Assembly: GCA_017134395.1 (NCBI GenBank)
Contig: CP070993.1
Span: forward strand, 462,199-526,198
Reading direction: 5' to 3'
Origin: Candidatus Kaiserbacteria bacterium
GTDB lineage: Bacteria; Patescibacteriota; Minisyncoccia; Phycocordibacterales; UBA2100
Length of the DNA stretch: 64,000 nt
The notes under the pieces are model-generated. The model was not told where the DNA came from, made no database searches, and saw only the letters and a list, made by a program, of their open reading frames with translations. The position numbers were made by a program, and so were the translations under genes. Positions 373-63,776 of the stretch are shown piece by piece. Positions within the stretch are counted from its first letter, which is position 1. The number at the start of each line of letters is the position of its first letter.

Positions 373-457
373 GGAGAGGTGGCAGAGAGGTCGATCGCAC
401 TGGTCTTGAAAACCAGAGTGCCGCAAGGTACCGAGGGTTCGAATCCCTCCCTCTCCG
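373..457 (+). tRNA. tRNA-Ser(TGA), CCA not encoded
   Basis: GGAGAGG acceptor stem, ctggt-CTTGAAA-accag anticodon arm, long variable arm, GGTTCGAATCC T-arm. Confidence 0.97.
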
Positions 458-460
458 CAA

Positions 461-692
461 TACACTAAAACTCCCCTACTTTCGTAGGGGAGTTTTAGTG
501 TATCTTGTCGACGGGATTCGAAAGGCGGAAGCCCGCGTGCGGGGCACGAGGAAGGGCTGAGCCCAGACCAAAAACACTTACGTAGAATTGAAGCGAAGTG
601 AACAATTGTACTTAGTGACTGGTGGTCGAATCCTTCTTTGAATATTTATGAACAAAATACTTAGCAGAGGTGACCGAATCCCTCCCTCTCCG
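461..692 (+). repeat. tRNA-trailer structured element, copy 1
   Basis: Long hairpin 461-502; inverted T-arm copy 513-522; TACTTAGTGA 609-618; 18-bp direct copy of the tRNA 3' end at 675-692. Confidence 0.7.
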
Positions 693-778
693 TATCGACA
701 TAAATAAACTTTTATGCTCTACTGCGCACAGCTTGTTCGTATTGACTCCATCTCAAATGAAAGAAAGGGTATCCTGCT

Positions 779-1189
779 ATGGAAACACAGGAAAAAGAAA
801 TTATTTGGGTTCCAGAAATCTCAGAAGAAGCGCTTGATGAACTTTTCAGAAGAATCAAGCCGGTGATTAGAATAGGTGACAATCTTCACCGAGTCAAAAT
901 AAAGCGGGAAAACTTGCGTGATACCGCATATTTATGGGGAGCAAAACTAAAGTGGAGAAGACAGAAAGGTCTTACGGTCTTGTGTGACATCAATACTTTT
1001 CATTACTGGACACGTCCGCTTTTTAAACCGTCTGTAGCTGAAGTATTGGCTCAGATACCAGAAGAATTCCTCGAAAAAGTAGTAGCGTTCGAAATTGTTG
1101 CGCTTGAACCTTTCAATTCTGAGCTGGGAAAGAAAGCTTTTAACGCTGGTTGTGCTACTGCAATCACAAGGCTTTATGTTCTAACATAA
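779..1189 (+). CDS. Hypothetical protein
   Basis: 136-aa ORF followed by a hairpin and T-run near 1211-1243. Confidence 0.7.
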   Translation: METQEKEIIWVPEISEEALDELFRRIKPVIRIGDNLHRVKIKRENLRDTAYLWGAKLKWRRQKGLTVLCDINTFHYWTRPLFKPSVAEVLAQIPEEFLEKVVAFEIVALEPFNSELGKKAFNAGCATAITRLYVLT

Positions 1190-1255
1190 GCGGTGTTGTT
1201 GACATAAACAAAAGCGTGCGACCTTTGGGACGCGCGCTTTTTTGTAACTTGATAA

Positions 1256-1879
1256 TTACCTAGCGAGTTGCTCAGGAGACCGGTTAAAGTTTCTTTTCAC
1301 ATACTCTGTAATCTGTTCAACGTCCACAGTATCAAGCTCAAGTAGTCTACCCCACGAAGCAACAGCAATGTTGCTATCATTTGCTGACCGCGGTGAGACT
1401 ACAGTTCTACCAGAATAGTTTCTTCCAATATCTTCGAGTTTCTGAATATCCTCTTGGCTTAAGTCTTTATATGAGATCCAAATACCTCCATGCTCAAGGT
1501 TATGGACTACATTTTCGTCGATTAATTCATCTTGGTACACACCAAAATTAACCGGGGCACCGTGCGCGCCTGATGTAGGAGGATTCGTATTGTATGGATC
1601 GTGTGTTGCACCTATGGTTATATGCCCCGCTCCCATCACGGCGACTTGTTTGCCTGGCCGTGCTTCCTCTGATTTTTCAGCGGCACTAATACCCCAATAT
1701 ATCAAGGCACCCAAGGCAACAAATACCACCAACCATACTGCTATTTTCTTAATTTTTTTTGAACGAATACTTCTTGCACGCTGATGCTCTTTTGCGGCTC
1801 GTTTGTTATCTATTTTTTCCTTTCTACTAAGTTGTGGTTCTTGGTTTATATTTTCTTCATTTTGCATATTGATTTTCAC
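1256..1879 (-). CDS. DUF3105-domain membrane-anchored protein
   Basis: Single TM; PPTSGAH and VHNLEHGG motifs. Confidence 0.85.
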   Translation of the reverse strand: MKINMQNEENINQEPQLSRKEKIDNKRAAKEHQRARSIRSKKIKKIAVWLVVFVALGALIYWGISAAEKSEEARPGKQVAVMGAGHITIGATHDPYNTNPPTSGAHGAPVNFGVYQDELIDENVVHNLEHGGIWISYKDLSQEDIQKLEDIGRNYSGRTVVSPRSANDSNIAVASWGRLLELDTVDVEQITEYVKRNFNRSPEQLAR

Positions 1880-1886
1880 TTAATGA

Positions 1887-2429
1887 CTAATCTGTTACAC
1901 ATACTTGCGGTTCGCTAATTTTTTTTGCAGTTGTTACAACAGCATATATGAGTAGCGCCACACCGAGAATTCCAAATTCCTCACCCCCTAATGGTAAGAA
2001 CGAAATTATGCCAGCAGCACCAATAAATCCAAGTATCCATGTAAGAATGAAAGTCCCACAGGCAGCACATCCAATACCAAATATTCCACTAATCAAACCA
2101 CCAACACCTGCCATTGAATTCGTCCCTCGTATGATTGTTTTTTGTTTACGAACAAAGTACGCGAACAATGAAACATTAACTCCAAACAAGATGGCGATAA
2201 GAATGGTGTATGTTGCTGACACTACTGTAAAGTTTGTCTTGATGGATTCAGATAAACTGAGAACAAGTGTGACTTTGTCACGTAACTCAATACTCGGACT
2301 CGGGAGTATCTGCCACAATAATGCGAAGTTAGGTAGCAGTACTGCAAAAGTAAAGATGAGTAACGCGATTCCTACCGAAAGGGCGATATAGAAAGGACTG
2401 CGAAATACTTTGTATATACCATCCATCAT
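1887..2429 (-). CDS. Multi-TM membrane protein with CxxC (GCAACG)
   Basis: About 4 hydrophobic helices; CAAC motif; operonic with DsbA-like gene. Confidence 0.75.
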   Translation of the reverse strand: MMDGIYKVFRSPFYIALSVGIALLIFTFAVLLPNFALLWQILPSPSIELRDKVTLVLSLSESIKTNFTVVSATYTILIAILFGVNVSLFAYFVRKQKTIIRGTNSMAGVGGLISGIFGIGCAACGTFILTWILGFIGAAGIISFLPLGGEEFGILGVALLIYAVVTTAKKISEPQVCVTD

Positions 2430-2432
2430 GCG

Positions 2433-3143
2433 TTATTTGCTATCTAAACCAATCTCTATGAGTTGTTTTACCGCTTCATAAGGTTGTGCACCAGAAAGTG
2501 GGTAGGTGGTACCGTCTGCCCCAATCACTACACTCCACGGCGTTCCGCGTCCACCAGTTTCTATAGCGTTTTGTATATCTTCCTCTATATGACTATCGTA
2601 CGTACCGCTATCCAAACACTCATTGAAAGCAGCTTCATTTAGCCCAATCTCTCTTACAATCTGTGGGATAACTGTGTCCAAGTCGGTTTGATTATTCGAT
2701 GGCGTCAATTCAAAAAAGCGGTCGGTAAACTGCCAAAATCCATCATTACCACCTAACTCTGCGGCACACTCAGATGCTACAGCTTCACGACGTGCTTTTA
2801 CTGGATGTAGTTGGTCGAGTGGGAATTGACGATACACCCATGCAACCTCGCCACTGTCCCCGTACTCATCCATAACTTGATTCATTGTTTCGTGAAAACG
2901 CTTGCAGAATGGGCATTCAAAATCTGAATATTCAACAATCTTTACTGGGGCGTTCGGATCTCCTTTAATGTGGTCTTGTGCTGTCACGGGATTCACTGCA
3001 TCCGTAGACCCATTTGCTTGTTGTTCTTGGGTATCGGCTGAAGCTTGACCAGCTGGATTGCTACTGCTGATAACCACTGCTGCTGCTACAAGCACTCCTG
3101 CGATAACTATTGCTACTGGTACTGCTAGTTGTTGTCCTTTCAT
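2433..3143 (-). CDS. DsbA/BdbD-family thiol-disulfide oxidoreductase
   Basis: N-terminal anchor, EYSDFECPFC, GTP cis-Pro loop, GAQPY. Confidence 0.92.
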   Translation of the reverse strand: MKGQQLAVPVAIVIAGVLVAAAVVISSSNPAGQASADTQEQQANGSTDAVNPVTAQDHIKGDPNAPVKIVEYSDFECPFCKRFHETMNQVMDEYGDSGEVAWVYRQFPLDQLHPVKARREAVASECAAELGGNDGFWQFTDRFFELTPSNNQTDLDTVIPQIVREIGLNEAAFNECLDSGTYDSHIEEDIQNAIETGGRGTPWSVVIGADGTTYPLSGAQPYEAVKQLIEIGLDSK

Positions 3144-3150
3144 ATATTTT

Positions 3151-3537
3151 TTACTTTACATTATTTATTACTTTTTTTAATTTATCTTCAATTTCTTGAG
3201 CGATGCTTTGTAAGTCTTCGCTTTCTACCATAGACATAGCAACTGTTGGTAAAATAGAAGAAACGAAAACCTCGTCGTCCTTCTCGTACACAATAACATT
3301 ACATGGTAAAAGCAGTCCTATTTCTTGTTCTGCTTGCAAGGCTGTGTGAGCAAATGGTGGATTACACGCACCTAAAATTATGTAATTACCAAAATCAACA
3401 CCCAGCTTCTTTTTCAGAGTACCTTTTACATCAATTGTAGTTAATACACCGAAGCCTTCTGCTGATAGTTCCTCCGTTGTTTTTTCGACCGTTTTCTCGA
3501 AGTTTAGTGTTGATTTTTTCGTATATCCGTATGACAT
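3151..3537 (-). CDS. DUF302-domain protein
   Basis: GFGVL, ILGACNP and GLLLPCNV motifs. Confidence 0.9.
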   Translation of the reverse strand: MSYGYTKKSTLNFEKTVEKTTEELSAEGFGVLTTIDVKGTLKKKLGVDFGNYIILGACNPPFAHTALQAEQEIGLLLPCNVIVYEKDDEVFVSSILPTVAMSMVESEDLQSIAQEIEDKLKKVINNVK

Positions 3538-3543
3538 AGTAAT

Positions 3544-5553
3544 TTATTGTAAGTTAATTTTTTTAAGCGTCATTGCGTTGACTACAACAATAACAGTTGA
3601 AAGACTCATGACCAAAGCTCCTATCTCAGGTCTTAAAAAGAATCCCCAAACAGCAAATACTCCAGCGGCGGCCGGAATAGCGATTATGTTGTACCCAAGC
3701 GCCCATACAAGATTTTGTATCATTTTTGAGTACACCTTTTTAGACAGTGTAATGAGACGAGCAATGTCACTTGGGTCATTGTCCATTAAAACAACATCGC
3801 CAGATTCAACCGCGACATCTGTTCCTGCACCAATTGCTACTCCGGCATTTGCTTGTGTAAGTGCAGGAGCATCGTTTACCCCATCACCAACCATGAGAAC
3901 AATATTTCCCTGTTCTTGGAGATCCTTTATGTGCGTATATTTGTCCTCTGGTAACACATTCGCAAAGTAGGTATCAATTCCCAACTCATCCGATACAGCT
4001 TTCGCCACCTGCTCATTATCTCCTGTAAGCATTGCAACTTTTACCTCCATATCGTGCAGCGCTTTTATTGCTGTGTACGATTCTTTTTTTATTGCATCTG
4101 CGAGAACAATGTAACCGAGTAGTTCTTTTTTATTAGCGACAAATACTATCGTCCCATTAATAGCGTTCGGTGATTCATGGTCAAACTGCAAACTCTTAAT
4201 TAGTCTCTCATTTCCAGCAAAATACTCTTCACCGTGTACCTTTGCTGTAATTCCCTGTCCTGCGATGTTCCGGAAATCAGAGATTTCCGATAATGCAATA
4301 TTTTTCTCCTTTGCATGAGCTACTATTGCATGTCCAATGATGTGAGAAGAATGTTGCTCTAGAGAAGCAGCAATTTCAATAATCCTGTTTTTATCTGATT
4401 CCTCCTTTGAAACTATTTCTGTCACACCAAACTCTCCTCTTGTCAGCGTTCCTGTCTTATCGAACACAACATAATCTGTTTTTCGAATAACCTCTATTTT
4501 AGAGAGGTCTTTGATAAAAAATCCATTCTTAACTGCAAGTGATGTCGTGATTGTTGTAACAGTTGGAATAGCGAGACCAAGTGCGTGCGGACATGCAATC
4601 ACTAACACTGTAATTGCGAGAGTGATGGCGAATACAAACGTTTCTCCCATGATAAGAGTCCAGACCAGTAGTGTAAGAAGTGCGGTTATTCCTGCAACAA
4701 ACGTCAATATAGCTGAAGCTTTATCAGCAATTTTTTGTGATCGTGGCTTTGTTCTTCCGGCTTCTTCTATTAACTTTTGAATTTGTCCGACGGTCGAATG
4801 CTCTCCGACACGAACAAGCTCTATTGTCAGTGCTCCATCTAAACAAATCGAACCTGCCACTACTTCATCGCCTTCGTGTTTTTCTATTGGTTTTGATTCT
4901 CCACTAATAAGTGACTCATCTACGTTAGCCGACCCAGTGATTAGTATTCCGTCAGCAGGAATTTTTTCTCCTGGTTTTACAATAACTACATCTTTCTCTT
5001 GTAACTCAGCTATATCAACATCAATTTCTTTCCCATCTACAAGTTTGTGAGCTTGTTTCGGTAACAATTTAGCAACTTCTTGCAGGGCATTTCCCGCAGC
5101 TCCGCTCGATTTTGCTTCTAGATAATGACCAAACAAAAGCACCCAAACCAGCGTTGAAATTTCAAGATAAAATTCAACCTCAAGAACTACGATAAACGTA
5201 GAGGCGACAGAAAATAAGTACCCTGCGCCAACAGCAAGTGATACGAGAGTCATCATGCCGTACTGTCTCGCTTTTATCTCATGCCACGCGTGTTTGAAAA
5301 ACACCAGCGCAAATCCAAAAATAATAGTAGCGATAATAAATTGAATCCACTTCCCTAATCCCAGCTCTCCGATACCGAGCAAACCAGCAATAAACTCATT
5401 GGTAAGAGCTAATGGAAGTAATAAGAAAGTAACAATCCAGAACCTTTTTAGGTAAGAACTCGCTGACCCATGATCCATTCCATGTCCGCCATGACTCGCA
5501 TGTGAAGAACTTTTCTCTTTGTGGTTAATGTGTGAAGAGTGATCCATACGCAT
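3544..5553 (-). CDS. copB: Copper-translocating P1B-type ATPase (CopB-like)
   Basis: His-rich N-terminus, SGES, CPHALG, DKTGTLT, GDGVNDAP, YN and MSLST motifs. Confidence 0.9.
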   Translation of the reverse strand: MRMDHSSHINHKEKSSSHASHGGHGMDHGSASSYLKRFWIVTFLLLPLALTNEFIAGLLGIGELGLGKWIQFIIATIIFGFALVFFKHAWHEIKARQYGMMTLVSLAVGAGYLFSVASTFIVVLEVEFYLEISTLVWVLLFGHYLEAKSSGAAGNALQEVAKLLPKQAHKLVDGKEIDVDIAELQEKDVVIVKPGEKIPADGILITGSANVDESLISGESKPIEKHEGDEVVAGSICLDGALTIELVRVGEHSTVGQIQKLIEEAGRTKPRSQKIADKASAILTFVAGITALLTLLVWTLIMGETFVFAITLAITVLVIACPHALGLAIPTVTTITTSLAVKNGFFIKDLSKIEVIRKTDYVVFDKTGTLTRGEFGVTEIVSKEESDKNRIIEIAASLEQHSSHIIGHAIVAHAKEKNIALSEISDFRNIAGQGITAKVHGEEYFAGNERLIKSLQFDHESPNAINGTIVFVANKKELLGYIVLADAIKKESYTAIKALHDMEVKVAMLTGDNEQVAKAVSDELGIDTYFANVLPEDKYTHIKDLQEQGNIVLMVGDGVNDAPALTQANAGVAIGAGTDVAVESGDVVLMDNDPSDIARLITLSKKVYSKMIQNLVWALGYNIIAIPAAAGVFAVWGFFLRPEIGALVMSLSTVIVVVNAMTLKKINLQ

Positions 5554-5560
5554 TAGATTC

Positions 5561-6046
5561 CTATTCTGTCTTCACTACTAACGCCTTAATTCGTACCTCT
5601 AGCTCTGGCGTAGCGCTCGCGTTTGTCTTTAAAAATACAGATCGTTGCGCAAGCCCTGTTCCTGAAGGACCGTGGGCTAGTGGATCATAGATAACAGTCA
5701 ACTCTTTCGTCTCTCCGGCAAGTATAACAAACTCCTTATTCATTTCTTCGTGCATACCGAAGCTAATCCCTCCAAGTGCAGCGTTAGTACAACCGCAACT
5801 GGTTGTGCCTTCTGTAACTACAACGTCATCCGGGCCCCCATTTGTTAGGGCAAAAGTTGTGGTAACTACTCCACTGAATATATCTACTTCACCAAAGTCG
5901 TGCATCTGCCTATCGACAGTCAACAGTGAAGAGCTTGTAGTTTGTTTACTCTCTACTGTTTGGTTTGTACCATCCGACAAGAGCATAATGCCTCCTCCGA
6001 CTAGAAGAGCTCCTATGAGTATAAGTAATGCAGTATTTGTTTTCAT
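5561..6046 (-). CDS. DUF1573-domain exported protein
   Basis: Signal/TM, HDFG, TSCGCT. Confidence 0.85.
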   Translation of the reverse strand: MKTNTALLILIGALLVGGGIMLLSDGTNQTVESKQTTSSSLLTVDRQMHDFGEVDIFSGVVTTTFALTNGGPDDVVVTEGTTSCGCTNAALGGISFGMHEEMNKEFVILAGETKELTVIYDPLAHGPSGTGLAQRSVFLKTNASATPELEVRIKALVVKTE

Positions 6047-6064
6047 AATTTATATATATGTTAC

Positions 6065-6973
6065 CTATTCGCCTTCTAAGATATCAACCGTGATTTTCAC
6101 TTCTGCCTCAAGATTGTTTGGGTCATTTGTTGGAATAAAAATAGTTCTAGTTAACTTATCTGAAGGCTCCTTATGAAAGTCGGGGTCAAAGTAAACGGTC
6201 AGAATAGCCGCATCACCAGGTGCAATATTTTCATTCGATATCTCTGCTGTGGTGCAGCCACAACTAGTACTTAGTTCGCCAATATTAAGGAGACTTTTCC
6301 CAGTATTTCTCACCGTAAAGGTAGTTTGAAGAATTCCTTGAGATTGGGGAACATCGCCAAAATCGTGCACTGCGCGATCAAAGGATATGCGTGCATCAGA
6401 ATCGTTTACCGAAGTAATATTTGAGTCAGTGCCGTCATACTCCCCAGTTTCAGTGAATGGATACTTATCTTCTTGCCAGTGCACCATACCACCTGCGACA
6501 CTGGTGATATTTGTATAGCCAAGAGAGTTCATAATGTCATATGCTTGTTTGCTGCGAGCGCCACTACGGCAATATATGATTATTTCTTTGTCCTTTGCGT
6601 TATCCCCAAGATTAATGCCGGCAAGTGTATTCGCTGAAAGTTCTCCGACCGGAAGGAGTAGTGCGTTCTCTAAATGAACTTCTGCATATTCTTCTGGAGT
6701 TCTTACATCAAGAAGCACGATATCTTTATTCCTTCTAATTTTTTCTACGACATCTCGTGGGCTCATTTCATAGCTATCTACGTAATCTGTATGGTACTCA
6801 TCATGACCAAACATCATATCCATCATTCCACCATATTCATGTTCATCGTGGTCATGATCGTGATTATGGCCAGTATGAAATCCTATGTGTGTGACATTAT
6901 TTAAGAAGAAGAATCCTAGAATAATAACGAGGATAGAAATAAGTACCGTCGTAAATACATTGGAATTGTTCAT
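6065..6973 (-). CDS. Membrane-anchored His-rich rhodanese / DUF1573 fusion
   Basis: TM, HTGHNHDHDHDEH, LLDVRTPEEY...CRSGARS, then HDFG...TSCGCT. Confidence 0.85.
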   Translation of the reverse strand: MNNSNVFTTVLISILVIILGFFFLNNVTHIGFHTGHNHDHDHDEHEYGGMMDMMFGHDEYHTDYVDSYEMSPRDVVEKIRRNKDIVLLDVRTPEEYAEVHLENALLLPVGELSANTLAGINLGDNAKDKEIIIYCRSGARSKQAYDIMNSLGYTNITSVAGGMVHWQEDKYPFTETGEYDGTDSNITSVNDSDARISFDRAVHDFGDVPQSQGILQTTFTVRNTGKSLLNIGELSTSCGCTTAEISNENIAPGDAAILTVYFDPDFHKEPSDKLTRTIFIPTNDPNNLEAEVKITVDILEGE

Positions 6974-6975
6974 AA

Positions 6976-7245
6976 TTATTTCTTTAATTTATATACTTTC
7001 AAAATTTCAGTCACTGCTTTCTTCTGTTCACCTGTTTTAATCTGGGTAATAACACAAGAAGACAGGTGCTTCTCTAGTAACACATCCTCAACTCCCCTCA
7101 AGGCATTACGAATGGCAGACGTCTGAGTAATAACGTCAATGCAGTATGTATCTTCTTCCACCATTCTTTGGAGACCCCTGATTTGGCCTTCAATTCTCTT
7201 TAGGCGATTGTTCACTAATTTCTTATCAGCTTTCACAAATTCCAT
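6976..7245 (-). CDS. csoR: CsoR-family metal-sensing repressor
   Basis: RLKRIEGQIRG, YCIDV, HLSSC (Cys/His/Cys copper ligands). Confidence 0.92.
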   Translation of the reverse strand: MEFVKADKKLVNNRLKRIEGQIRGLQRMVEEDTYCIDVITQTSAIRNALRGVEDVLLEKHLSSCVITQIKTGEQKKAVTEILKVYKLKK

Positions 7246-7267
7246 TATACCCCATAGGGGTATAATG
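7243..7267. promoter_or_regulatory. CsoR operator overlapping the csoR start codon
   Basis: cattatacccc-ata-ggggtataatg; C-tract/G-tract pseudo-palindrome typical of CsoR operators. Confidence 0.85.
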
Positions 7268-7316
7268 ACAAACGATCAATTGTGTCTGTATTATATAGAG
7301 CGTGTGAGGGCTTTTA

Positions 7317-8261
7317 CTACTCTTCTTCTCCTAACCGGAAAAATCGTCTTTTCAAACCAACCCAGAGCAAGTGCAGAGCACCGAGCGTAAGCACCACAAG
7401 CTCTGCGTAAAACATCCACGCTTTGCTTATCATAACTCCAGCAACAGAGGCACTCGCAGCTGCTATTTGATGTTCCCGTTTTTTACTTTCTTCTGCTGTT
7501 TTAATTTCATTTTCAAACCCTTCAACGGCAGGAAGTGACTCAGACCGCTCTATTTCTGCAAGCGCAGCACGTTGCGTTTCTTCATACTCTCGCAATACTT
7601 CAGCAGTTTTCTTTCGAGTGTTTTCGATTGACTCAAATGTTGTTGCCACTACTCCTTTTTCTTTCTCTTGCTCAGTATCCTCAGGAGCACTTTGTTCTTC
7701 TAATTTTGTACGTGGTGCTCGGCTCACTATCTTGTCTAATAACACCTTTCCTGATTCAGTAACATCAAAGGAGGTTTTAGGAAGTATATTTTTAATCAGC
7801 GGTTCACTATCTTCGCTATCGTTAATGCCATCATTATCGTCATCTGGATCGGTAGTATTTTGTATACCATCTCCATCAGTGTCCGCTACCACAAAAATAG
7901 TGCGCTCTGCGAGCTCAGTGTTTGTAATTTCACTACTATTACCTGCAGTAAAACTCATATGTATCGTGTGGCTGCCGACACCAAAGGCGTACGGGATGCC
8001 CACCCTTTTTATATCTCCTTTTCCAATAGTTACTTCAGTGGCCTTTACCGCCTCTCCGTCAACAACAAGCGTTGCAATACCTTGTATTTGTTCGTCAGTT
8101 TGATTATGCAACACTGAATATACGGTTGTTTCTCCAAAATTCGTTATTGGGTCAGTTGAAAACCACAACCCATTTACCAACCCGGCAGTTGTTGCGGCAG
8201 AAGCAGTTGTTGCAGTGGCAAGAAACAGTACGATGAGACTAATGTAACAAAACTTATACAT
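7317..8261 (-). CDS. Secreted surface protein with Ca-binding Asp-rich (thrombospondin type-3-like) repeat and C-terminal TM
   Basis: Signal peptide; DTDGDGIQNTTDPDDDNDG; C-terminal hydrophobic helix. Confidence 0.7.
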   Translation of the reverse strand: MYKFCYISLIVLFLATATTASAATTAGLVNGLWFSTDPITNFGETTVYSVLHNQTDEQIQGIATLVVDGEAVKATEVTIGKGDIKRVGIPYAFGVGSHTIHMSFTAGNSSEITNTELAERTIFVVADTDGDGIQNTTDPDDDNDGINDSEDSEPLIKNILPKTSFDVTESGKVLLDKIVSRAPRTKLEEQSAPEDTEQEKEKGVVATTFESIENTRKKTAEVLREYEETQRAALAEIERSESLPAVEGFENEIKTAEESKKREHQIAAASASVAGVMISKAWMFYAELVVLTLGALHLLWVGLKRRFFRLGEEE

Positions 8262-9270
8262 ATTCTTTAATATACCTCATGATAACATCTGCAAGCTTAC
8301 GACTATCATGACGAATGAATGAGCGTGTGTGTGCAAGAGCATCGCCCGTGCCACCTTCTGTTGTTTTTTCATTGAGGAAATCCTCTCCAATAATACGTGT
8401 GGTGTTTTTGTGAGTATCACATGATACAAACATCCCCTTTCCTTCTTGTTCTTCATATCGCCGTGCCAACTCTTCGCTCGGTTCTGCAGTATTACATACA
8501 AGCACATCGATACTTCTCCCACGTAAGTGTTTTTCAACTGTTGTTGCGTAGGTATGTGCACTAAATCCACCGGTGAGCCCTTTTTTGTTGGTAACGTTTG
8601 CTACAACTGCGATATGTGCTGATGTGTCGCGTAATGATTGTGAGATACCTTCTACAAGTAGGTTGGGAATAATGCTCCCGTGCACATCACCCGGACCAAT
8701 CACTACGAGGTCTGCTTTTGTAATTGCTTCAAGTGCTTCAGCTGAAGCAGTAACTGGGTACGCGAGCGAAATCTCTCTTACGCCATGTTCGCGCACGCGC
8801 TCATCATCATCAAGATAACTCTCCCCTTCAAGAACGACACCATTATTCAATTCTACCAGTAAGCGCATGTCTCCCTCCGTAACTGGCAGTACCCGTCCAT
8901 ATACATTGAGAATCTTTCCTGCAACTGCAACTGCTTTTGGAAAACTACCTGTTATCTTTTCAAGTGCAGAAAGAAATAAATTACCGGCGTTGTGTCCTTT
9001 TATATCACCATGCAAAAATCGATAGCTAAATAGCTCTCGCACTTCAGGAGTTGCTCGAGCAAGCGCGGCAAGGCATTGCCGCACATCACCTGGCGGCAAC
9101 ACTCCTAAATCATCGCGCAGCACTCCGGTCGAACCCCCGTCATCAGCCATGCTAACAATCGCTGATATGTGTATAGGAAATTCCTTAAGACCAGACAAAA
9201 GTACGAAGCTGCCCGTTCCTCCTCCGATAGTTACTATGCGTGGCTGTCGGCTATTTTTTGTTGTTTCCAT
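8254..9270 (-). CDS. yvcK: YvcK/GlmR (UPF0052) protein
   Basis: IGGGTG, DDGGSTG, PPGDVR, RHD motifs; start moved to METTK at 9270. Confidence 0.92.
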   Translation of the reverse strand: METTKNSRQPRIVTIGGGTGSFVLLSGLKEFPIHISAIVSMADDGGSTGVLRDDLGVLPPGDVRQCLAALARATPEVRELFSYRFLHGDIKGHNAGNLFLSALEKITGSFPKAVAVAGKILNVYGRVLPVTEGDMRLLVELNNGVVLEGESYLDDDERVREHGVREISLAYPVTASAEALEAITKADLVVIGPGDVHGSIIPNLLVEGISQSLRDTSAHIAVVANVTNKKGLTGGFSAHTYATTVEKHLRGRSIDVLVCNTAEPSEELARRYEEQEGKGMFVSCDTHKNTTRIIGEDFLNEKTTEGGTGDALAHTRSFIRHDSRKLADVIMRYIKEYV

Positions 9271-9325
9271 AGCTATGCATCTAATCTTATTGAATAGAAA
9301 GCAGTATGTCGATACAATGCATTGT

Positions 9326-9730
9326 ATGAAACGTGGTTTTACGATTATTGAGCTGCTTGTAGTCATGGCAATTATTGGCATGCTTGCATCAATAATGTTT
9401 GTTACATTCTCAACACTCCAGGCAAAATCACGTGACACTCGTAGAGTAGAAGACGTTCGAGAATTACAAAAAGCGCTTGGGATGTATTATATTGAAGGCA
9501 ACCAATTCCCTATTTCTGCCTCGGCAGTAAACATTACAGGTTCTGATCCTGTGTCAACGACACTTATAAATAATGGGGTGATTTCAGGAATTAGTGGCGA
9601 TCCCGTAAGCCCAACGTACGATTATACTTACCAAACATCTGGTCCAGGTAACTACACTATTACCTTCTGTCTCGAAACTGATTCAATACAAAAATATGTT
9701 CAAGGATGTACCAACACAGTTTCTAATTAG
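9326..9730 (+). CDS. Type IV pilin / GspG-like prepilin
   Basis: MKRG|FTIIELLVV class III signal peptide; KSRDTRR. Confidence 0.92.
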   Translation: MKRGFTIIELLVVMAIIGMLASIMFVTFSTLQAKSRDTRRVEDVRELQKALGMYYIEGNQFPISASAVNITGSDPVSTTLINNGVISGISGDPVSPTYDYTYQTSGPGNYTITFCLETDSIQKYVQGCTNTVSN

Positions 9731-9751
9731 CAGTAGTGTCACATACGTATC

Positions 9752-10213
9752 ATGCCACAAAACATCGTTTGGAAAGCATACGAACACTCCCACACAGATA
9801 AAGGATCTGACTGGTTTTGGGCGCTTGGAATCGTTGCCTTTTCGAGTGCCTTAGTTGCGGCTCTTTTTCAAAACTTCCTCTTTGCCCTTTTAATTCTTGT
9901 GGGTGCATTTACGCTTGCCCTTCTTTCGGCTCGCCCTCCTCGAGAACTTGAATTTGCACTCACCCCCCAAGGAGTACGTATAGACAATGCGCTCTATCCA
10001 TACCAAATGCTTATATCGTTTTGGATTAAAGACAGAGAAACTGACCACGCAGAACTCATCATTGACGCACGTAAATTTATGACGCCTCACCTTATTGCCT
10101 CTTTGGAAGATACAGATGTTGAATCAGTACAAGCGTACCTTGAACAGTTTCTTCCAGAAGAAGAGCTTGAAGAACCCTTTGTGCAACGCATCTTAGAGAG
10201 ATTTGGTTTCTAA
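9752..10213 (+). CDS. Conserved 2-TM hypothetical protein (DUF5673-like)
   Basis: WKAYEH...DWFW, two TMs, soluble C-terminal domain. Confidence 0.7.
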   Translation: MPQNIVWKAYEHSHTDKGSDWFWALGIVAFSSALVAALFQNFLFALLILVGAFTLALLSARPPRELEFALTPQGVRIDNALYPYQMLISFWIKDRETDHAELIIDARKFMTPHLIASLEDTDVESVQAYLEQFLPEEELEEPFVQRILERFGF

Positions 10214-10376
10214 TAACTGGTAATACACCAGTAATTTTGTATAGTAGTGCCTACTTATACCTATTGTGTATAAGGGTCGCACCACAAGAGTACTTCCATT
10301 ATTTCTAAGAGCATAGCTCTAAGAAAAATTGGTCGCACCACCAAGGCACTTCTTGTTTTGTAAACAAAACAAAGTC

Positions 10377-10448
10377 GCTCCCGTAGTTCAATGGATAGAA
10401 TACAGGTTTGCGGAACCTGAGATCTAGGTTCGACTCCTAGCGGGAGCA
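10377..10448 (+). tRNA. tRNA-Arg(GCG), CCA not encoded
   Basis: GCTCCCG/CGGGAGC acceptor stem; caggt-TTGCGGA-acctg; GGTTCGACTCC. Confidence 0.95.
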
Positions 10449-10450
10449 CT

Positions 10451-10662
10451 AGAAAACCAAGACCGTAACGCGATTAAGCGTTACGGTTTTTGGGTTTCTT
10501 GATTCAGCTAGGAGTCGAAAGACGGAGGCGGTATACAAGACGAGTGAAACGAGTGCTTGTCGCCGAGTCAAGGCAGGAGCCACTTAGGAGCGGAGCGAGT
10601 TAGTGAGCTGCGCCGACTCCTACGTAAAAGTGTGAAAATTATACTTAGTGATTCGTGACCAC
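10451..10662 (+). repeat. tRNA-trailer structured element, copy 2
   Basis: Hairpin ~10452-10499; inverted T-arm copy gctaggagtcgaa 10507-10519; direct copy cgactccta 10614-10622; TACTTAGTGA 10642-10651. Confidence 0.7.
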
Positions 10663-10673
10663 AAAGGTAATTA

Positions 10674-10699
10674 AAAAACCGCCCAATTGGGCGGTTTTT
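10674..10699 (-). terminator. rpsT terminator (loop-less palindrome)
   Basis: aaaaaccgcccaattgggcggttttt. Confidence 0.75.
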
Positions 10700-10961
10700 A
10701 TGCTACGTTTGCAACATCACGAGCAATCTTAGCTTTCTTTCGTGATGCGTTGTTTTTCTTTATAATTCCGCGTTTTGCTGCCTTATCAATTGCTTTGTAT
10801 GCCTTTGGAAGAAGCTCCTCGGCGGTCTTTTTTTCTTTTTTACCAACAAGAGTAGCAATTTCTTTCATTGCCTCTTTCATAGCGCGAAGACGACGTACGT
10901 TGAAAACACGACGGGCTTCCGCTTGTATAACTGACTTCTTTCCTGATTTCGATGTTGCCAT
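10698..10961 (-). CDS. rpsT: 30S ribosomal protein S20
   Basis: AIDKAAKRGIIKKNNASRKK. Confidence 0.97.
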   Translation of the reverse strand: MATSKSGKKSVIQAEARRVFNVRRLRAMKEAMKEIATLVGKKEKKTAEELLPKAYKAIDKAAKRGIIKKNNASRKKAKIARDVANVA

Positions 10962-11020
10962 GAATGGGCAATATACTGTATTTATCTACGAAACGCAATG
11001 CTCGTGGTATGATTTGTTCA

Positions 11021-11584
11021 ATGATTATACAGTTACGCGGCACAGTAGTGGGAAAAGACCCTGAATACATAATTCTCGACGTAAGTGGCGTTGGCTATAA
11101 AGTATTTGTTACTCCAGAAACATTAGCTCATACTCCAGAGGATAAAGAAGCAGCAGTATGGACACATCTAGCTGTTCGAGAGACATCACTTGATATTTAT
11201 GGATTCCTTAAACGAGAAGACATGCTTTTCTTTGAACTCCTCATCGGAATTTCAGGTGTTGGTCCAAAGTCTGCCCTATCCATACTTAGTCTTGCTGATG
11301 TCACGACTCTCACCAGTGCGATTTCCCAAGGAGATACTTCATACCTCACAAAGGTTTCTGGCATTGGTGCCAAGAGTGCTCAAAAAATAGTACTTGAGTT
11401 AAGTGATAAGGTAGGAGCACTAAGCGAAAACCCGTCACTGAAAGAAGATGCAGACGCAATTGACGCTCTCACCGCAATGGGGTACTCGGTGTCAGAAGCG
11501 CGAACCGCGCTTAAAGCTGTTCCAAAAGATGTCGAAGGTGCTAACGCACGCTTAAAGCAGGCATTAAAAGCGCTCGCTCAGTAA
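11021..11584 (+). CDS. ruvA: Holliday junction protein RuvA
   Basis: MIIQLRG, GVGYKV, SGVGPKSAL, GIGAKSAQKI. Confidence 0.97.
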   Translation: MIIQLRGTVVGKDPEYIILDVSGVGYKVFVTPETLAHTPEDKEAAVWTHLAVRETSLDIYGFLKREDMLFFELLIGISGVGPKSALSILSLADVTTLTSAISQGDTSYLTKVSGIGAKSAQKIVLELSDKVGALSENPSLKEDADAIDALTAMGYSVSEARTALKAVPKDVEGANARLKQALKALAQ

Positions 11585-11594
11585 TATTTACTAT

Positions 11595-12872
11595 ATGCAT
11601 ACACTCAAAAGACTCATACCAAAACCGCTGTACCAAATGATAGCGCCTCTCTACCACCACGCTCTTGCGTGGGTTGGTGCACAATTATACGGACATCCTT
11701 CAAAGAAAATAAACGTTGTTGCTATTACTGGCACAAAAGGAAAATCGAGTGTCAGTGAATTGGTACATAGTATATTAGAGCACGCTGGCTACAAGACGGC
11801 ACTTGTAAGTACTATCCATTTTAAAATGGGATCACATAGTGAGCCCAATAAACTCAAGATGACAATGCCTGGCCGCTTCTTTCTGCAAAAGTTTCTTAAA
11901 AAAGCAGTTGACGCCAACTGTGATTGGGCTGTCATTGAAATGACATCTGAAGGTGCTAGCCAGTTTCGTCATATCAACATTGAGACTGATGCGCTCATTT
12001 TCACAAATATCACTCCTGAACACATCGAATCCCACGGTTCGTTTGAAAACTATCTTGCTGCAAAACTTTCTATTGGAAAAGCCCTAGAGAAATCGAAAAA
12101 ACCCTCCCGGATTATTGTGGCAAATGCCGATGATGAACATGGGGCTGATTTCTTAGCACTTCATGTGGACAGAGCGCTACCTTTTACACTTGAGTATGCA
12201 AAACCATGGTCTACAACCGAAAGCGGCACACAAATAACATTTGAAGGTACCACCATACACTCTCCTATTCCGGGTGAATTCACTGCATACAACATGCTTG
12301 CTGCTGCCACATTCGCACGCGCCATAGGAGTGGGCATCAAGCACATTAAGGCGGGACTTGAAGCAACACAGCTTATTCCAGGACGAGTAGAGCCTATTGC
12401 AATTGGTCAAGATTTTAAAGTTATTGTAGATTACGCGCACACCATCGAATCTCTTGAGAAACTCTACCAGGCATTCCCAAACAAAAAGAAAATATGCGTC
12501 CTTGGAAACACCGGTGGTGGCCGGGATACATGGAAACGTCCCAAAATGGCAGCACTTGCAGAAAAATACTGCGAACGAGTTATCCTTACTGATGAAGATC
12601 CGTATGATGAAGACCCTGAGTCTATCGTGCAAGAAATGGCAGCTGGAATGAACACGAGGCCTGAAATTATAATGGATCGTCGGCGCGCAATTCGAGCAGC
12701 AATAGAATTAGCAAAAGGTAATGCCGAGAGTGCAGTGCTTATAACCGGAAAAGGAACTGATCCATATATTATGCGCGCTAACGGTGACAAAGAGCCTTGG
12801 AGCGACGCTACTGTGGCACGTGAAGAGTTACAGGCAGCACTTGGTGATACTAAAAGTGCTGCTACTATATAA
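11595..12872 (+). CDS. murE: MurE-type Mur ligase
   Basis: ITGTKGKSS, EMTSEG, TNITPEHIE, VDYAHT, ITGKG. Confidence 0.88.
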   Translation: MHTLKRLIPKPLYQMIAPLYHHALAWVGAQLYGHPSKKINVVAITGTKGKSSVSELVHSILEHAGYKTALVSTIHFKMGSHSEPNKLKMTMPGRFFLQKFLKKAVDANCDWAVIEMTSEGASQFRHINIETDALIFTNITPEHIESHGSFENYLAAKLSIGKALEKSKKPSRIIVANADDEHGADFLALHVDRALPFTLEYAKPWSTTESGTQITFEGTTIHSPIPGEFTAYNMLAAATFARAIGVGIKHIKAGLEATQLIPGRVEPIAIGQDFKVIVDYAHTIESLEKLYQAFPNKKKICVLGNTGGGRDTWKRPKMAALAEKYCERVILTDEDPYDEDPESIVQEMAAGMNTRPEIIMDRRRAIRAAIELAKGNAESAVLITGKGTDPYIMRANGDKEPWSDATVAREELQAALGDTKSAATI

Positions 12873-12874
12873 GT

Positions 12875-13786
12875 ATGTTAAAGAAAATTTTTGTTATTGG
12901 CGGAGCTATTTTGATTTTACTTTTTGTCTGGTTCACGTTTCAATCAGTCAAGAATGCACTCACAACAAATACCAAAAGTGAAAGCAGCTTCTTTGGAGCT
13001 GACTTTTTCTTTCCTTTTCCAAGTGACATTATGCAAAGTATCTCCTTCCAAGATACTAATCGAGTAGCACAAGTAAGTCTTGAAGAACTTGGTGAATTCT
13101 CTCCGGCACAAGGACTTGTAGAAATAGAAGAAAATACTGCGCATATAAGTGTTTCGGACGTGAATGATGAATACATCATTATTCGTGCGCTTGAAACAAA
13201 CGTGCAGCCAGTAAACATCAGTAATTGGTCGCTTCAAAGCATGGTAAGCGACGAATGGATAGGGCTACCACAGGGAGCCCCTCTGTACATTCTTGGAGAA
13301 GTAAATGAGGTACAGGATATCTATCTAGCACCAGGCGAACGAGCAATTATATCAACAAGTCAATCGCCTGTCGGTGTTTCGTTTCGCGTTAATCGCTGCT
13401 CTGGATTTCTAAATGACACTCAAGATTTTGACCCCCCTATTCGTACCGCGTGTATTAACCCACAAGAAATTCTGTTACCTACTGCACAGAACATAAAAGA
13501 CTACGGTGCTTCATGTGTCTCATTTGTTGAACGAATAGGAAGCTGTACGTATGTCACCAGTGATCTCAAAGAAATTTTGGATGTCTCACAGGCATGTAAA
13601 GACTTTATCAAACCGCTTCTTACCTATAACTACTGCATCAACACGCACGCTGGTGATGCTGATTTTTACGAAAAAAACGAATGGCGAATATTTTTAAATG
13701 AGGACAAAGCACTGTGGCGAGAGAATTACGAAATAGTGCGTTTGCTCGATGAAAAACATCGAACTGTTGATGTTATTACGTATTAG
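12875..13786 (+). CDS. Membrane-anchored Cys-rich protein, lamin-tail-like domain
   Basis: N-terminal TM; EYIIIRA...VNISNWSL; several Cys; RLLD C-terminus. Confidence 0.65.
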   Translation: MLKKIFVIGGAILILLFVWFTFQSVKNALTTNTKSESSFFGADFFFPFPSDIMQSISFQDTNRVAQVSLEELGEFSPAQGLVEIEENTAHISVSDVNDEYIIIRALETNVQPVNISNWSLQSMVSDEWIGLPQGAPLYILGEVNEVQDIYLAPGERAIISTSQSPVGVSFRVNRCSGFLNDTQDFDPPIRTACINPQEILLPTAQNIKDYGASCVSFVERIGSCTYVTSDLKEILDVSQACKDFIKPLLTYNYCINTHAGDADFYEKNEWRIFLNEDKALWRENYEIVRLLDEKHRTVDVITY

Positions 13787-14246
13787 TACTAAGTGAAAAC
13801 AAAACAATACCTGCAGTCACACTTACGTTCAGTGACTCCTTCTTTCCATGCATTGGTATCTCAACTATGTAATCGCTCTTATCGCGCAACTGCTTCGACA
13901 CCCCTCGTACTTCGTTACCAAGTATCAGTGCCATCTTGGGCAATGTCTTGAAGTCGTTTAAAACAATAGATCGCTCATCTTGCTCTATCGATATAATACT
14001 AAAGCCTTCTTTCTTCAAATCTTTTAATACGTTGTTAATGTCTCCCGATTCCCATCGTACATACTCTTGTCCACCAAGAGCGGTCTTGGCGATATCTTTT
14101 TGGGGACGACCAAAACGATCAATTGGCTTAGGTGTGTATCCGGTAAGATACATTTTAGTGACGCCTGCTGCATCAGCTGTTCGAAAGATAGAACCCACAT
14201 TGTGAGTACTCCGTATGTTGTGCAATATTACAATAACCTCATTCAT
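13776..14246 (-). CDS. SpoU/TrmH-family RNA methyltransferase
   Basis: HNVGSIFRTAD, GNEVRG, IPMHG..ESLNVS. Confidence 0.93.
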   Translation of the reverse strand: MNEVIVILHNIRSTHNVGSIFRTADAAGVTKMYLTGYTPKPIDRFGRPQKDIAKTALGGQEYVRWESGDINNVLKDLKKEGFSIISIEQDERSIVLNDFKTLPKMALILGNEVRGVSKQLRDKSDYIVEIPMHGKKESLNVSVTAGIVLFSLSTNT

Positions 14247-14307
14247 GCTGCATACTATACAATAAGACTGTAAAAATAGTGTATGTATGCTATATTTTGC
14301 ACCATTC

Positions 14308-14380
14308 CCGCCCGTAGCTCAGTTGGTAGAGCAGCGGCCTTTTAAGCCGAATGTCGTAGGTTCGAGTCCTACCGGGCGGA
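14308..14380 (+). tRNA. tRNA-Lys(TTT), CCA not encoded
   Basis: CCGCCCG/CGGGCGG acceptor stem; cggc-CTTTTAA-gccg; GGTTCGAGTCC. Confidence 0.96.
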
Positions 14381-14387
14381 CAAACGT

Positions 14388-14665
14388 AAAAATATAAGCA
14401 CTTCCCGTGAATAGGAAGTGCTTATATTTTTAGCAAGCAAACTGCTTTGCTTGCGGCGTTTGTCCGAGACGGAACCATGTTTTGCGATTTTCCCTGAGCG
14501 AAACGGGTGAGTCCGGGCAGGAGGTTCTTAATGAACGTAGTGAATTTAGAAACCTGACGCGACATATAAAGCACTTAGTAAAATTGGAGAGTACGAATAA
14601 TTTTACTTAGTGACTTGTGACGACATAATGAATTGAATGAAATTTACATAGTGATGGGTGGCGAC
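14388..14665 (+). repeat. tRNA-trailer structured element, copy 3
   Basis: Hairpin 14388-14431; cgtttgtccg 14457-14466 antisense to the tRNA 3' end; TACTTAGTGA 14604-14613 and TACATAGTGA 14645-14654. Confidence 0.65.
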
Positions 14666-62246: not shown

Positions 62247-63776
62247 TTATCTCTCTTGTTTGGGTCGATATTGAAGTGCTTCAAGAATGTGAGTTTCGTT
62301 AATATTGGCGGACTTTTCAATGTCGGCAATGGTGCGAGCTAGTTTTATACAGCGATGGTACGCACGCGGTGAGAGATTCATTTTAGTTGCAGCGTTATTA
62401 AGAATATCAGCACACTCTTTTGAAAGTGGCGCATGGTGACTTAGTCCTGCTGGAGTCATGCCGCTGTTAAGACGTTTTGGTTTCTTGAAGCGTTTTAGTT
62501 GTATTGTTCTGGCGTCTGCAACTTTTTTGCGCGTAATATCGGATTCATTATTCTTTTTCGGTTTCTCTAATAGTTTACTGTGCTCTATTGCACCAACTTC
62601 AATCCACATATCTATACGGTCCATTATAGGTCCTGATAGCTTTTGCTGATACCGCTGGAGTGCAGCAGGTGCACACGTACATTTAGTGCTCCCGTAATAG
62701 CCACACGGACAAGGGTTAAGCGCTGCAATGAGAATAAAATCAGACGGAAACACAGCAGAACCTTTTGCACGCGTTATAGAAACCACTTTGTCTTCTAATG
62801 GTTGGCGCAGTGCATTAATGACCCGTTTATCGAATTCTGGGAACTCATCAAGGAAAAGGACGCCACGGTGAGCGAGCGTTATCTCCCCTGGGCGCGGTAT
62901 AGTGCCACCACCGACAAGCGAAACATAGCTTGCGGTGTGGTGAGGACTTCGTAATGGTGGGCGTTGTACAATAGTTTCTGTAAGAGTCCCAGCGATTGAG
63001 TGAATACTTGTTACTTCTAATGCTATGTCGTGAGGTAAATTAGGTAATAAGGAACAGAGCGCTTTTGCGAGCATTGTTTTACCAGTCCCAGGAGGACCGA
63101 AAAGAGCGATGTTATGACCACCTGCTGCTGCGATAGTAAGGCCACGCTTTGCATGGTCTTGGCCTCGTATAGACTCGAGATGATTTTCAGGTGTATACGG
63201 TACTGTGTGTGGTGAGTTGCTTAAAGGAGTTATTTCTTCTGTGCCACGTAAGTGAGAAACAATTTGAGAAAGTGTGGCTGTAGGGAAAACAGTAATACCC
63301 TCGATAAGCGCTGCTTCAGCTGCATTCTCTTCTGGTACAAAGACTGCATTAAAGCCTTCGCTTCGTGCTTTTTGTACCAGAGGCAATACGCCAGTTGTTG
63401 CTTTGATTTTTCCATCCAATGAAAGCTCACCAAAGAAAAGAAGTTTCTCGATTGATGCCTCCAGTTCCCCGCTTGCCAGTAGGTAGGCGATGGCAATTGG
63501 CACATCAAATAAAGGACCTTCTTTCTTTAAATCAGCTGGCGCAAGAGACACTACAATCTTCATGTTGTTGTGTTTTGGCGCTTTGAAACTAGAACTTTTT
63601 TCAAAGTCAGCATTTTTTAGTGCTGCACTTACTCTGTCGCGAGATTCTTCGACAGCTTTGTCGGGTAGTCCAACTACCGAGAACGCATGGAGACCTTTTG
63701 AGAGGTCAATTTCTATAGTAACGATATGTGCAGAAAGGAGTGATGTTTGCGCACTAAAAACTTGAGCAAAGGACAT
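62247..63776 (-). CDS. comM: ComM/YifB Mg-chelatase-like AAA+ ATPase
   Basis: VGLPD.AV.ESRDRV, GPPGTGKT, RSPHH, PGEITLAH, NPCPCG. Confidence 0.95.
   Translation of the reverse strand: MSFAQVFSAQTSLLSAHIVTIEIDLSKGLHAFSVVGLPDKAVEESRDRVSAALKNADFEKSSSFKAPKHNNMKIVVSLAPADLKKEGPLFDVPIAIAYLLASGELEASIEKLLFFGELSLDGKIKATTGVLPLVQKARSEGFNAVFVPEENAAEAALIEGITVFPTATLSQIVSHLRGTEEITPLSNSPHTVPYTPENHLESIRGQDHAKRGLTIAAAGGHNIALFGPPGTGKTMLAKALCSLLPNLPHDIALEVTSIHSIAGTLTETIVQRPPLRSPHHTASYVSLVGGGTIPRPGEITLAHRGVLFLDEFPEFDKRVINALRQPLEDKVVSITRAKGSAVFPSDFILIAALNPCPCGYYGSTKCTCAPAALQRYQQKLSGPIMDRIDMWIEVGAIEHSKLLEKPKKNNESDITRKKVADARTIQLKRFKKPKRLNSGMTPAGLSHHAPLSKECADILNNAATKMNLSPRAYHRCIKLARTIADIEKSANINETHILEALQYRPKQER

Follow-up and report, generated by a model that had tools for sequence, protein, structure and literature searches.

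The window, a stretch of 64,000 nucleotides from a Candidatus Kaiserbacteria bacterium (contig CP070993.1, positions 462,199 to 526,198), contains exactly three tRNA genes according to ARAGORN and Rfam, those for tRNA-Ser(TGA), tRNA-Arg(GCG), and tRNA-Lys(TTT). Each is followed by a protein-less element of about 150 to 190 bases that includes a short antisense copy of the tRNA in front of it, the guide, and this element is the subject of our analysis. The source genome (G000), of which the window is a part, is a single contig of 687,746 bases with 39 genes for tRNA or transfer-messenger RNA (tmRNA). The features of the three loci are as follows, with a slash marking each junction.

373..458, + strand: tRNA-Ser(TGA); T-loop junction C440/G441; tail 441-458 repeated downstream
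459..507, + strand: terminator-like hairpin H of the Ser element, the upper part of a long left hairpin 438-522 (z -10.6)
513..522, + strand: 10-nucleotide (nt) guide of the Ser element, the complement of 438-447, of which 3 nt precede the junction and 7 nt follow it
523..627, + strand: scaffold of the Ser element, made up of hairpin P2 and of the right-end hairpin P3, which has a T.T mismatch and carries TACTTAGTGA at 609; the right junction is C627/G628
628..692, + strand: Ser copies beyond the right junction; short direct copy 628-633, relic second right end at about 640-675, 17-nt tail copy 676-692
10377..10449, + strand: tRNA-Arg(GCG); T-loop junction C10431/G10432
10450..10506, + strand: hairpin H of the Arg element, terminator-like on both strands, 10459-10490 (+) and 10487-10462 (-) (z -11.1)
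10507..10519, + strand: antisense arm of the Arg element, a 13-nt perfect match, with the guide proper at 10510-10519
10520..10614, + strand: scaffold P2 and P3 of the Arg element; right junction C10614/G10615
10615..10665, + strand: Arg direct copy at 10615-10622, then an orphan right end that contains TACTTAGTGA at 10642 and ends C10660/ACA, an acceptor-end-type junction
14308..14381, + strand: tRNA-Lys(TTT); acceptor-end junction G72/A73, which is G14379/A14380
14380..14456, + strand: left arm, hairpin H, and a second hairpin (14433-14454) of the Lys element (z -12.6)
14457..14466, + strand: 10-nt guide of the Lys element, 10/10 complementary to 14377-14386
14467..14561, + strand: scaffold P2 and P3 of the Lys element; right junction G14561/A14562
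14562..14705, + strand: stacked further right ends at Lys, each G/ACA (14622/14623, 14663/14664, 14697/14698); TACTTAGTGA at 14604, variant at 14645

Reading all 39 tRNA and tmRNA trailers of the source genome gave one common layout: junction, left arm, hairpin H, antisense arm, scaffold, junction, and repeated host sequence. The left arm is the tRNA's own end, and the scaffold opens with A-R-R-C-G-G-A, followed by P2 and then by P3 with its T.T mismatch. The antisense arm has two possible partners. It can pair with the left site, giving one long hairpin (DNA z of about -11 to -13; -10.6, -11.1, and -12.6 at Ser, Arg, and Lys, respectively), or with the right copy, closing a three-way junction. 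The repeated host sequence is 2 to 25 nt long or comprises the whole unit. Elements also occur in tandem arrays, of identical as well as of unlike members, and unlike ones stack at a single site (loci L171, L028, and L042).

In an alignment of 41 copies, 90.7% of the cells were paired, compared with 31 to 41% when the sequences were slid, and 30 of the 36 pairs varied on both sides. The structure was drawn from the same sequences on which it was tested, and P1 pairing was a selection criterion for the alignment, so the weight of this covariation lies with P2 and P3. A model of the scaffold (R1) was used for copy counts. In the window it matched Ser at 508-639 (78 bits) and Arg at 10505-10626 (109 bits), and Lys partially. 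Because the copies are related, such counts overstate their independence. A subtype pattern matched the source genome alone among 101 genomes of the phylum.

The original prediction, made from the letters of the window, had described a shared trailer layout at the three tRNAs, and all its strings and positions were confirmed; the tRNA-specific antisense strings lie at 513, 10507, and 14457 and the loop motifs at 590, 10588, and 14533. It had also named a shared motif. TACTTAGTGA is indeed present at 609, 10642, and 14604, with variants at 658 and 14645, but it proved to be only the 3' strand of one subtype of right-end hairpin. Seven of its nine occurrences in the source genome fall inside elements and two in unrelated sequence. 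At Arg, the occurrence at 10642 belongs to the orphan second right end, and the working hairpin carries TTAGTGA at 10600. The 15-nt motif AATTNTACTTAGTGA occurs three times against 0.02 expected, a count reached in 0 of 100 shuffles. Direct copies of the tRNA had been reported for Ser and Arg only. They are present there, from 628, 676, and 10615 (627, 675, and 10614 with the preceding C), but Lys has them too, beginning at the discriminator base (ACA at 14562, 14623, 14664, and 14698); they were overlooked because they do not start in the T-loop.

The same prediction held that the complementary part is tailored to each tRNA. Our results bear this out: the antisense arm tracks its host, and it marks the junction in three registers. 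For 98 copies anchored by the scaffold alone, drawn from 211 distinct genes, arm and host matched in 95 to 100% of cases from position -3 to +4 (positions -3 and -1 being fixed by the anchor), in 88% at +5 and 84% at +6, and in 32 to 65% at +7 to +15. The constrained part is thus about 10 nt long and includes bases upstream of the repeated sequence. At the variable T-loop base (+2), the guide agreed with its host in 97% of the copies, compared with 30% for other tRNAs, and it matched TGC T-loops in 3 of 3 cases and TTCAA loops in 11 of 12. The distal antisense part is also more host-like than shuffled sequence (5.5 versus 3.8).

In all three registers, the guide pairs with 3 nt before and 7 nt after the junction, which lies in the T-loop at C56/57 (Ser and Arg in the window), at the acceptor end at N72/73 (Lys in the window), or at C74/75. 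The Lys copy has no T-loop arm; the ten bases before its scaffold pair 10/10 across G72/A73, and all of its right ends read G/ACA. A survey of 263 genes gave 107 anchors. Dropped as false or weak were L202, which lies upstream of a normal T-loop guide, L057, where the next tRNA gene begins, L204, with an offset of -1, and five with scores below 8/10; this left 93 T-loop, 3 acceptor-end, and 3 C74/75 cases. Two targeted acceptor-end searches covered 126 loci, with a tRNA at 22 of them, and yielded 17 anchors: 13 acceptor-end (at Lys, Val, Ala, and Leu genes), 3 C74/75, and 1 T-loop. One of the 13 is the window's Lys and two are near-duplicates. In the eight acceptor-end cases from metagenomes, the three guide bases next to the scaffold had been left free in the search pattern, and they paired with tRNA positions 70-72 in full (3/3) in seven cases and 2/3 in one. 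The base before the right junction was G wherever base 72 is G (9 of 9 loci) and C wherever base 72 is C (6 of 6 loci, among them a tRNA-Lys); in T-loop copies it was C in 68 of 72. These results indicate that the guide sets the junction, and they show that the base before the right junction follows the host. At the G-type junctions inspected (those of the window and L432), the foot of P3 is uncompensated, which suggests either that the cut falls one base further 5' or that the junction base is held by guide pairing. The C74/75 register is the least certain of the three, and could be the acceptor-end class with a 2-nt deletion.

The element is restricted to tRNA and tmRNA loci. R1 found 21 copies in the source genome, none away from a tRNA locus; 19 of them lie directly behind 18 tRNA genes and the tmRNA gene, at a distance of 33 to 86 nt. 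The remaining two are an extra right end 0.7 kb behind tRNA-Glu and the trailer of tRNA-Gln, displaced by 8.6 kb. The latter results from an island (G000:C1:656241-664820) encoding a 562-amino-acid (aa) large serine recombinase that lies between tRNA-Gln(CTG) and its trailer element; since the island splits the two, the element predates it. At tRNA-Glu(TTC), two right ends flank an open reading frame (ORF) for an 80-aa membrane-like protein, a possible captured cargo (G000:C1:281466-282273). Other irregular trailers include that of tRNA-Thr(TGT) (G000:C1:20574-20648), a gene apparently one base short before the 3' strand of the D-loop, which consists of guide and scaffold start only, and the similarly truncated trailer of Phe. 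At L100 and L102, ARAGORN assigned the tRNA ahead of the element to Ser(ACT), whose anticodon is unusual. One P3-like hairpin (G000:C1:424440-424530, - strand) follows an ssb-like gene, with no tRNA nearby and no R1 match.

Within the ultra-small Patescibacteria the element is common. Among 41 relatives, 31 were positive, with 0 to 29 copies per genome, and at least 49 genomes were positive in a sample of 151 from the class, in which the scoring covered 21 candidates per genome. Occupancy turns over within the genus. A guide was found at 18 of 39 genes in G000 and 11 of 41 in G010, four of them common to both, compared with 0 of 37 in G002 (17 contigs, 530 kb, possibly incomplete) and 0 of 39 in G004 (all 8 contigs). 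In these two element-free congeners, convergent tRNA pairs (Arg/Gly, Leu/Lys, and Arg/Val) share one terminator in the order tail, hairpin, antitail, a possible origin of the left half of the element. An exact 25-mer of the scaffold occurred at 55 loci in species genomes, 53 of them titled as Patescibacteria groups, and was common to 18 tRNA labels. In G020:C5, Gly(GCC) and Gly(TCC) are followed by identical elements, whose guide agrees with GCC over 17 nt and with TCC over 12 nt; both repeats at Gly(TCC) carry the TCC sequence. Searches beyond these genomes gave no match to the Arg scaffold in phages or plasmids (the eight listed hits of a further search cover the tRNA only) and no real match in viral contigs, where one chance hit fell in apparently coding sequence and a 20-mer matched none.

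The confinement to tRNA and tmRNA loci and the turnover agree with a non-autonomous tRNA-targeting element, as first proposed, and the behavior of the antisense part agrees with the description of it as guide-like; the enrichment behind tRNAs, the covariation, and the lack of an Rfam match at threshold likewise turned out as that proposal anticipated. Its two further suggestions, a pre-tRNA switch and an RNA family, are disfavored by the type of loop in the scaffold and by a terminator-like hairpin 5' of the guide. The 168 predicted terminal loops of 77 scaffolds include 57 GNA triloops, 4 GNRA loops, and 1 bottom-strand TNC, whereas 113 long perfect hairpins taken genome-wide as a control have 5 GNA and 9 GNRA loops. 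The significance of the GNA excess (p of about 1e-5) is overstated, as the copies are related and the control was defined differently. GNA prevails over GNRA, and UUCG is absent, even with RNA folding parameters. The GNA loops lie on one strand only. GCGNAGC mini-hairpins are exceptionally stable as DNA, and the RNA version cited for comparison is much less so, according to an excerpt of PMC13037366. Hairpin H has mixed loops and T-runs, and under a strict rule it scored as a terminator at Arg and not at Ser or Lys. We infer that the scaffold functions as DNA, in the single-stranded form of the tRNA-sense strand, and that hairpin H also serves as a replacement terminator.

We looked for a mobilizer in the vicinity of the element and in the gene content of its hosts. 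As the original prediction had noted for the window, no enzyme gene is attached: none was found at 90 anchors with 243 adjacent ORFs, where the recurrent neighbors track the locus rather than the element. Y1 HUH genes were detected in 18 of the 25 genomes rich in the element and in 5 of the 16 poor in it; G010 and G025 are among those in which none was found. A single Xer-like gene, present in 39 of the 41 genomes, does not separate element-rich from element-free ones. Of the Y1 HUH proteins, small GIY-YIG proteins, and Xer-type recombinases, none tracks the element in the way that an obligate partner would. No reverse transcriptase was found in the source genome. A comparison of G000 and G010 with G002 and G004 left 65 of 3,195 candidate ORFs, many of them shadow frames, including those for ComM, YraN, and a large serine recombinase. 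ComM and YraN are present in G000 and G010 and were not found in G001, G002, and G004. The ComM link, chosen after the fact, was not upheld in the class sample (ComM in 144 of 151 genomes; element in 1 of 7 without it and 48 of 144 with it; p 0.43), and YraN was not found in G006 (19 copies) and G033 (9 copies).

Several genes deserve mention here as observations in their own right. The window encodes a ComM/YifB-type AAA protein of 509 aa (62247-63776, - strand). A 170-aa protein (G000:C1:601613-602125) is 60% identical in G010 and was not found in G002 or G004. Two RAYT-like Y1 genes (G000:C1:326561-327211 and 373287-373979) each have their own flanking palindrome family, unrelated to the element. 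Small GIY-YIG genes lie directly behind tRNA-Met (G000:C1:644729-645227), between a hairpin-split 5' tRNA-Tyr fragment and an intact tRNA-Tyr (L129, G039:C4), and within about 10 nt after a complete element that stands behind a convergent tRNA-like sequence left uncalled by ARAGORN (L128, G007:C50:1533-1900).

Taken together, the findings make it very probable that this is a mobile element with a functional guide. How it moves is less certain. On the model of IS200/IS605, the somewhat more probable course is guide-directed, non-autonomous excision and insertion as single-stranded DNA by an enzyme acting in trans that was not found here. The tRNA-sense strand would fold when single-stranded, with the guide either across the intact left site or on the right copy, which would close the three-way junction, the cut then falling at the foot of P3. 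An HUH-type or other strand-transfer enzyme would cut both junctions and free a circle of left arm, H, guide, and scaffold. The guide would then capture a matching tRNA site, where one strand exchange would insert the circle. The left arm would thereby restore the end of the tRNA, H would stand in for the terminator that was displaced, and the former end would stay behind as the direct copy. New tRNAs might be reached through near-matching guides followed by correction of the long hairpin. The guide would thus serve twice, folding the left end and confining insertion to targets that the carried arm can restore to a working tRNA. That the strand transfer uses HUH-type chemistry is plausible, at somewhat less than an even chance.

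A number of observations weigh against movement by such an enzyme. No gene accompanies the element. R1 matched none of 19 Y1 loci, and an element lay within about 1.5 kb at 3 of 31 small GIY-YIG loci. In G010, a closed genome with 15 copies, there is neither a scored Y1 nor a small GIY-YIG gene, so the enzyme would have to come from another family, be a host enzyme, or be a visitor. Neither a circle nor an empty allele was observed, and the distal antisense part holds no trace of earlier hosts (6.47 versus 6.47 shuffled). The jump between the two Gly genes is a single case that could be gene conversion; as the left arm at the recipient has the recipient's sequence, 2 nt of a carried arm would have had to be corrected. 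The orthologous loci L042 and L208 have H and guide in common but differ in the scaffold, which was exchanged, and types of P2 and P3 are variously combined; both observations indicate recombination in place.

These last points raise the possibility that there is no dedicated transposase and that host recombination, through gene conversion among tRNA loci, uptake of single-stranded DNA, and possibly nicking by Ssn-like GIY-YIG proteins, spreads the element, with hairpin-templated correction keeping the arm matched. The scaffold swaps and mixed P2/P3 types would follow, as would the perfect tandem duplications, and the small GIY-YIG genes beside the element and the similar geometry of the convergent pairs in G002 and G004 also fit. 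The presence of ComM and YraN in G000 and G010 and their absence from G002 and G004 point the same way, as do the four ComM-less genomes among the 41, all with 0 or 1 copies, but both links gave way in the wider comparisons described above. Left unexplained are the base-exact junctions in three registers set by the distance between guide and scaffold, and the exact 25-mer across 18 tRNA labels. We regard this explanation as unlikely, albeit the strongest rival of guide-directed insertion.

Still less likely is that the unit works as RNA, either as a trailer switch in read-through pre-tRNA or as an RNA intermediate that inserts through reverse splicing and reverse transcription. In its favor, the strand that functions is also the one transcribed, RNA can adopt both folds stably, and the N72/73 and C74/75 junctions fall where tRNA 3' ends are processed; an E. 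coli analogue, discussed below, yields a small RNA according to its annotation and an excerpt of 10.1101/2024.07.17.603846. The ratio of GNA to GNRA loops (57 to 4) and the absence of UUCG speak against RNA, as do the terminator-like hairpin 5' of the guide (scored at Arg only), the congeners entirely without the element, and the lack of a detected reverse transcriptase in G000.

Islands that target tRNA genes likewise combine a junction in the T-loop with repetition of the 3' tail. It is nevertheless very improbable that the elements are attL/attR scars of integrase-driven islands that lost their cargo, or folded substrates of a single Xer-type recombinase: the island-like layout, the near-universal Xer-like gene, and the ORF enclosed at tRNA-Glu fit, but att pairs need neither an antisense guide nor a folded scaffold, no integrase-bearing copy was found, phages, plasmids, and viral contigs gave no real match, and Xer does not separate element-rich from element-free genomes.

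Guide-directed insertion of single-stranded DNA, the reading that we prefer, invites comparison with known systems. The element departs in at least one defining respect from each of IS200/IS605 with REP/RAYT, tRNA integrase islands, RtT, and the classical miniature inverted-repeat transposable element (MITE). Its strand-specific, imperfect end hairpins (a covarying P3, a T.T mismatch, and GNA loops on one strand) resemble the strand-specific folded ends with mismatched stems of IS608, ISDra2, and REP/RAYT, and the choice of the site by pairing with an element-encoded guide and the predicted single-strand circle are further likenesses to IS200/IS605 (excerpts of PMC5934647 and PMC6006769). As far as those excerpts go, it differs in having a 10-nt guide that spans the junction (3 + 7) rather than a tetranucleotide at the hairpin foot, a single guide for both ends, tRNA and tmRNA targets only, repetition of host sequence, and no linked TnpA; in this it is nearer to engineered extended-guide variants of IS608 than to natural IS608.

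Tyrosine-integrase islands and prophages use T-loop and 3'-end sublocations of tRNA and tmRNA genes. They share with the element the T-loop or 3'-end junction, the restored tRNA, the displaced tail downstream, tandem accretion, and an insert bounded by a direct repeat of the tRNA 3' end. They differ in that the element is about 170 nt long, lacks an integrase, contains an antisense guide and a folded scaffold, and occupies up to half of the tRNA genes; no integrase within the element or cognate to it was found, only the near-universal Xer-like gene. IS110 and IS1111 elements use a separate guide RNA, the bridge or seek RNA, bound to an element-encoded recombinase. Here, too, a programmable internal segment pairs with both sides of the insertion point, but the loops of our element are of DNA type and no recombinase gene was found; DEDD recombinases were absent among the recurrent neighbors, although no search aimed at the IS110 family was made. 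Unlike a classical MITE, the element has ends that are unlike each other, an inverted part that is internal and host specific, and no short fixed target duplication. The NTS repeats associated with Ssn GIY-YIG proteins are also single-stranded hairpin DNA repeats, and small GIY-YIG genes lie near some copies of the element, but an NTS is a 28-nt hairpin without a guide or tRNA link and the element lacks a consistent gene linkage; the main text of the Ssn nuclease paper does not mention tRNA (PMC11893778).

The closest likeness in design is to the 178-bp RtT (rttR) repeats behind tyrT-tyrV of E. coli (RF00391), which have a tail, a spacer, an antisense arm, a direct copy of the tail, and tandem arrays; the arm is followed by GAGAA, a variant seen in our element too, and by hairpins with GNA loops. 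The spacing in RtT is about 6 to 10 nt longer, and RtT does not share with its host the base that precedes the direct copy. Neither sequence nor model matches were found in either direction (RF00391 in 0 of 5 genomes, with a positive E. coli control; R1 at best 7.9 bits). An excerpt of 10.1101/2024.07.17.603846 treats rttR as a small RNA whose mode of action it calls unknown, and reports raised "mobilome" coverage over tyrT/rttR under stress, with signals from RNA genes put down to heteroduplex artifacts. No passage on RtT was found in PMC10542128. Elsewhere in Rfam, matches were below threshold only, such as BTnc231 at 28.7 bits (cutoff, 80.4), which came mainly from the terminator hairpin. 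No description of the element was found in titles and abstract starts of the full-text literature, a search whose scope excludes supplements and most subscription journals.

Two further repeats lie close to the tRNAs of the window, outside the main element:

10281..10378, + strand: separate small hairpin repeat, a tandem pair with copies starting at 10281 and 10337, which borders tRNA-Arg on its 5' side

This second repeat is at most about 57 nt long and has 10 copies in G000 (including 88549, 141338, 196143, 281536, 282788, 377702, 645589, and 457120), some of them inserted without duplication into the main element at Met, Ser-CGA, and Glu. At 287-332, 5' of tRNA-Ser, lies a near-perfect palindrome of 46 nt with ACGT-rich units.

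More speculatively, and at less than an even chance, the elements may form a new class of naturally programmable, DNA-guided single-strand insertion elements, in which a fixed three-way-junction scaffold and a 10-base guide would lead an undescribed enzyme to cut and join wherever the guide finds its match. Such elements would parasitize tRNA and tmRNA genes across Patescibacteria, and E. coli RtT, being of like design, could belong to them unrecognized. Should the site indeed be set by the guide, one enzyme would read a DNA scaffold and insert at freely chosen 10-base targets, a compact form of programmable integration unlike that of the tetranucleotide-guided IS200/IS605 or the RNA-guided IS110. 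The three registers predict exactly where cutting falls and how a swap of the guide would shift the cut, and a layout common to the tyrT repeats would make a long-unexplained feature of E. coli testable. Even as a passive repeat, the element occupies about half of the tRNA genes in some genomes of 0.6 to 0.7 Mb and none in their congeners.

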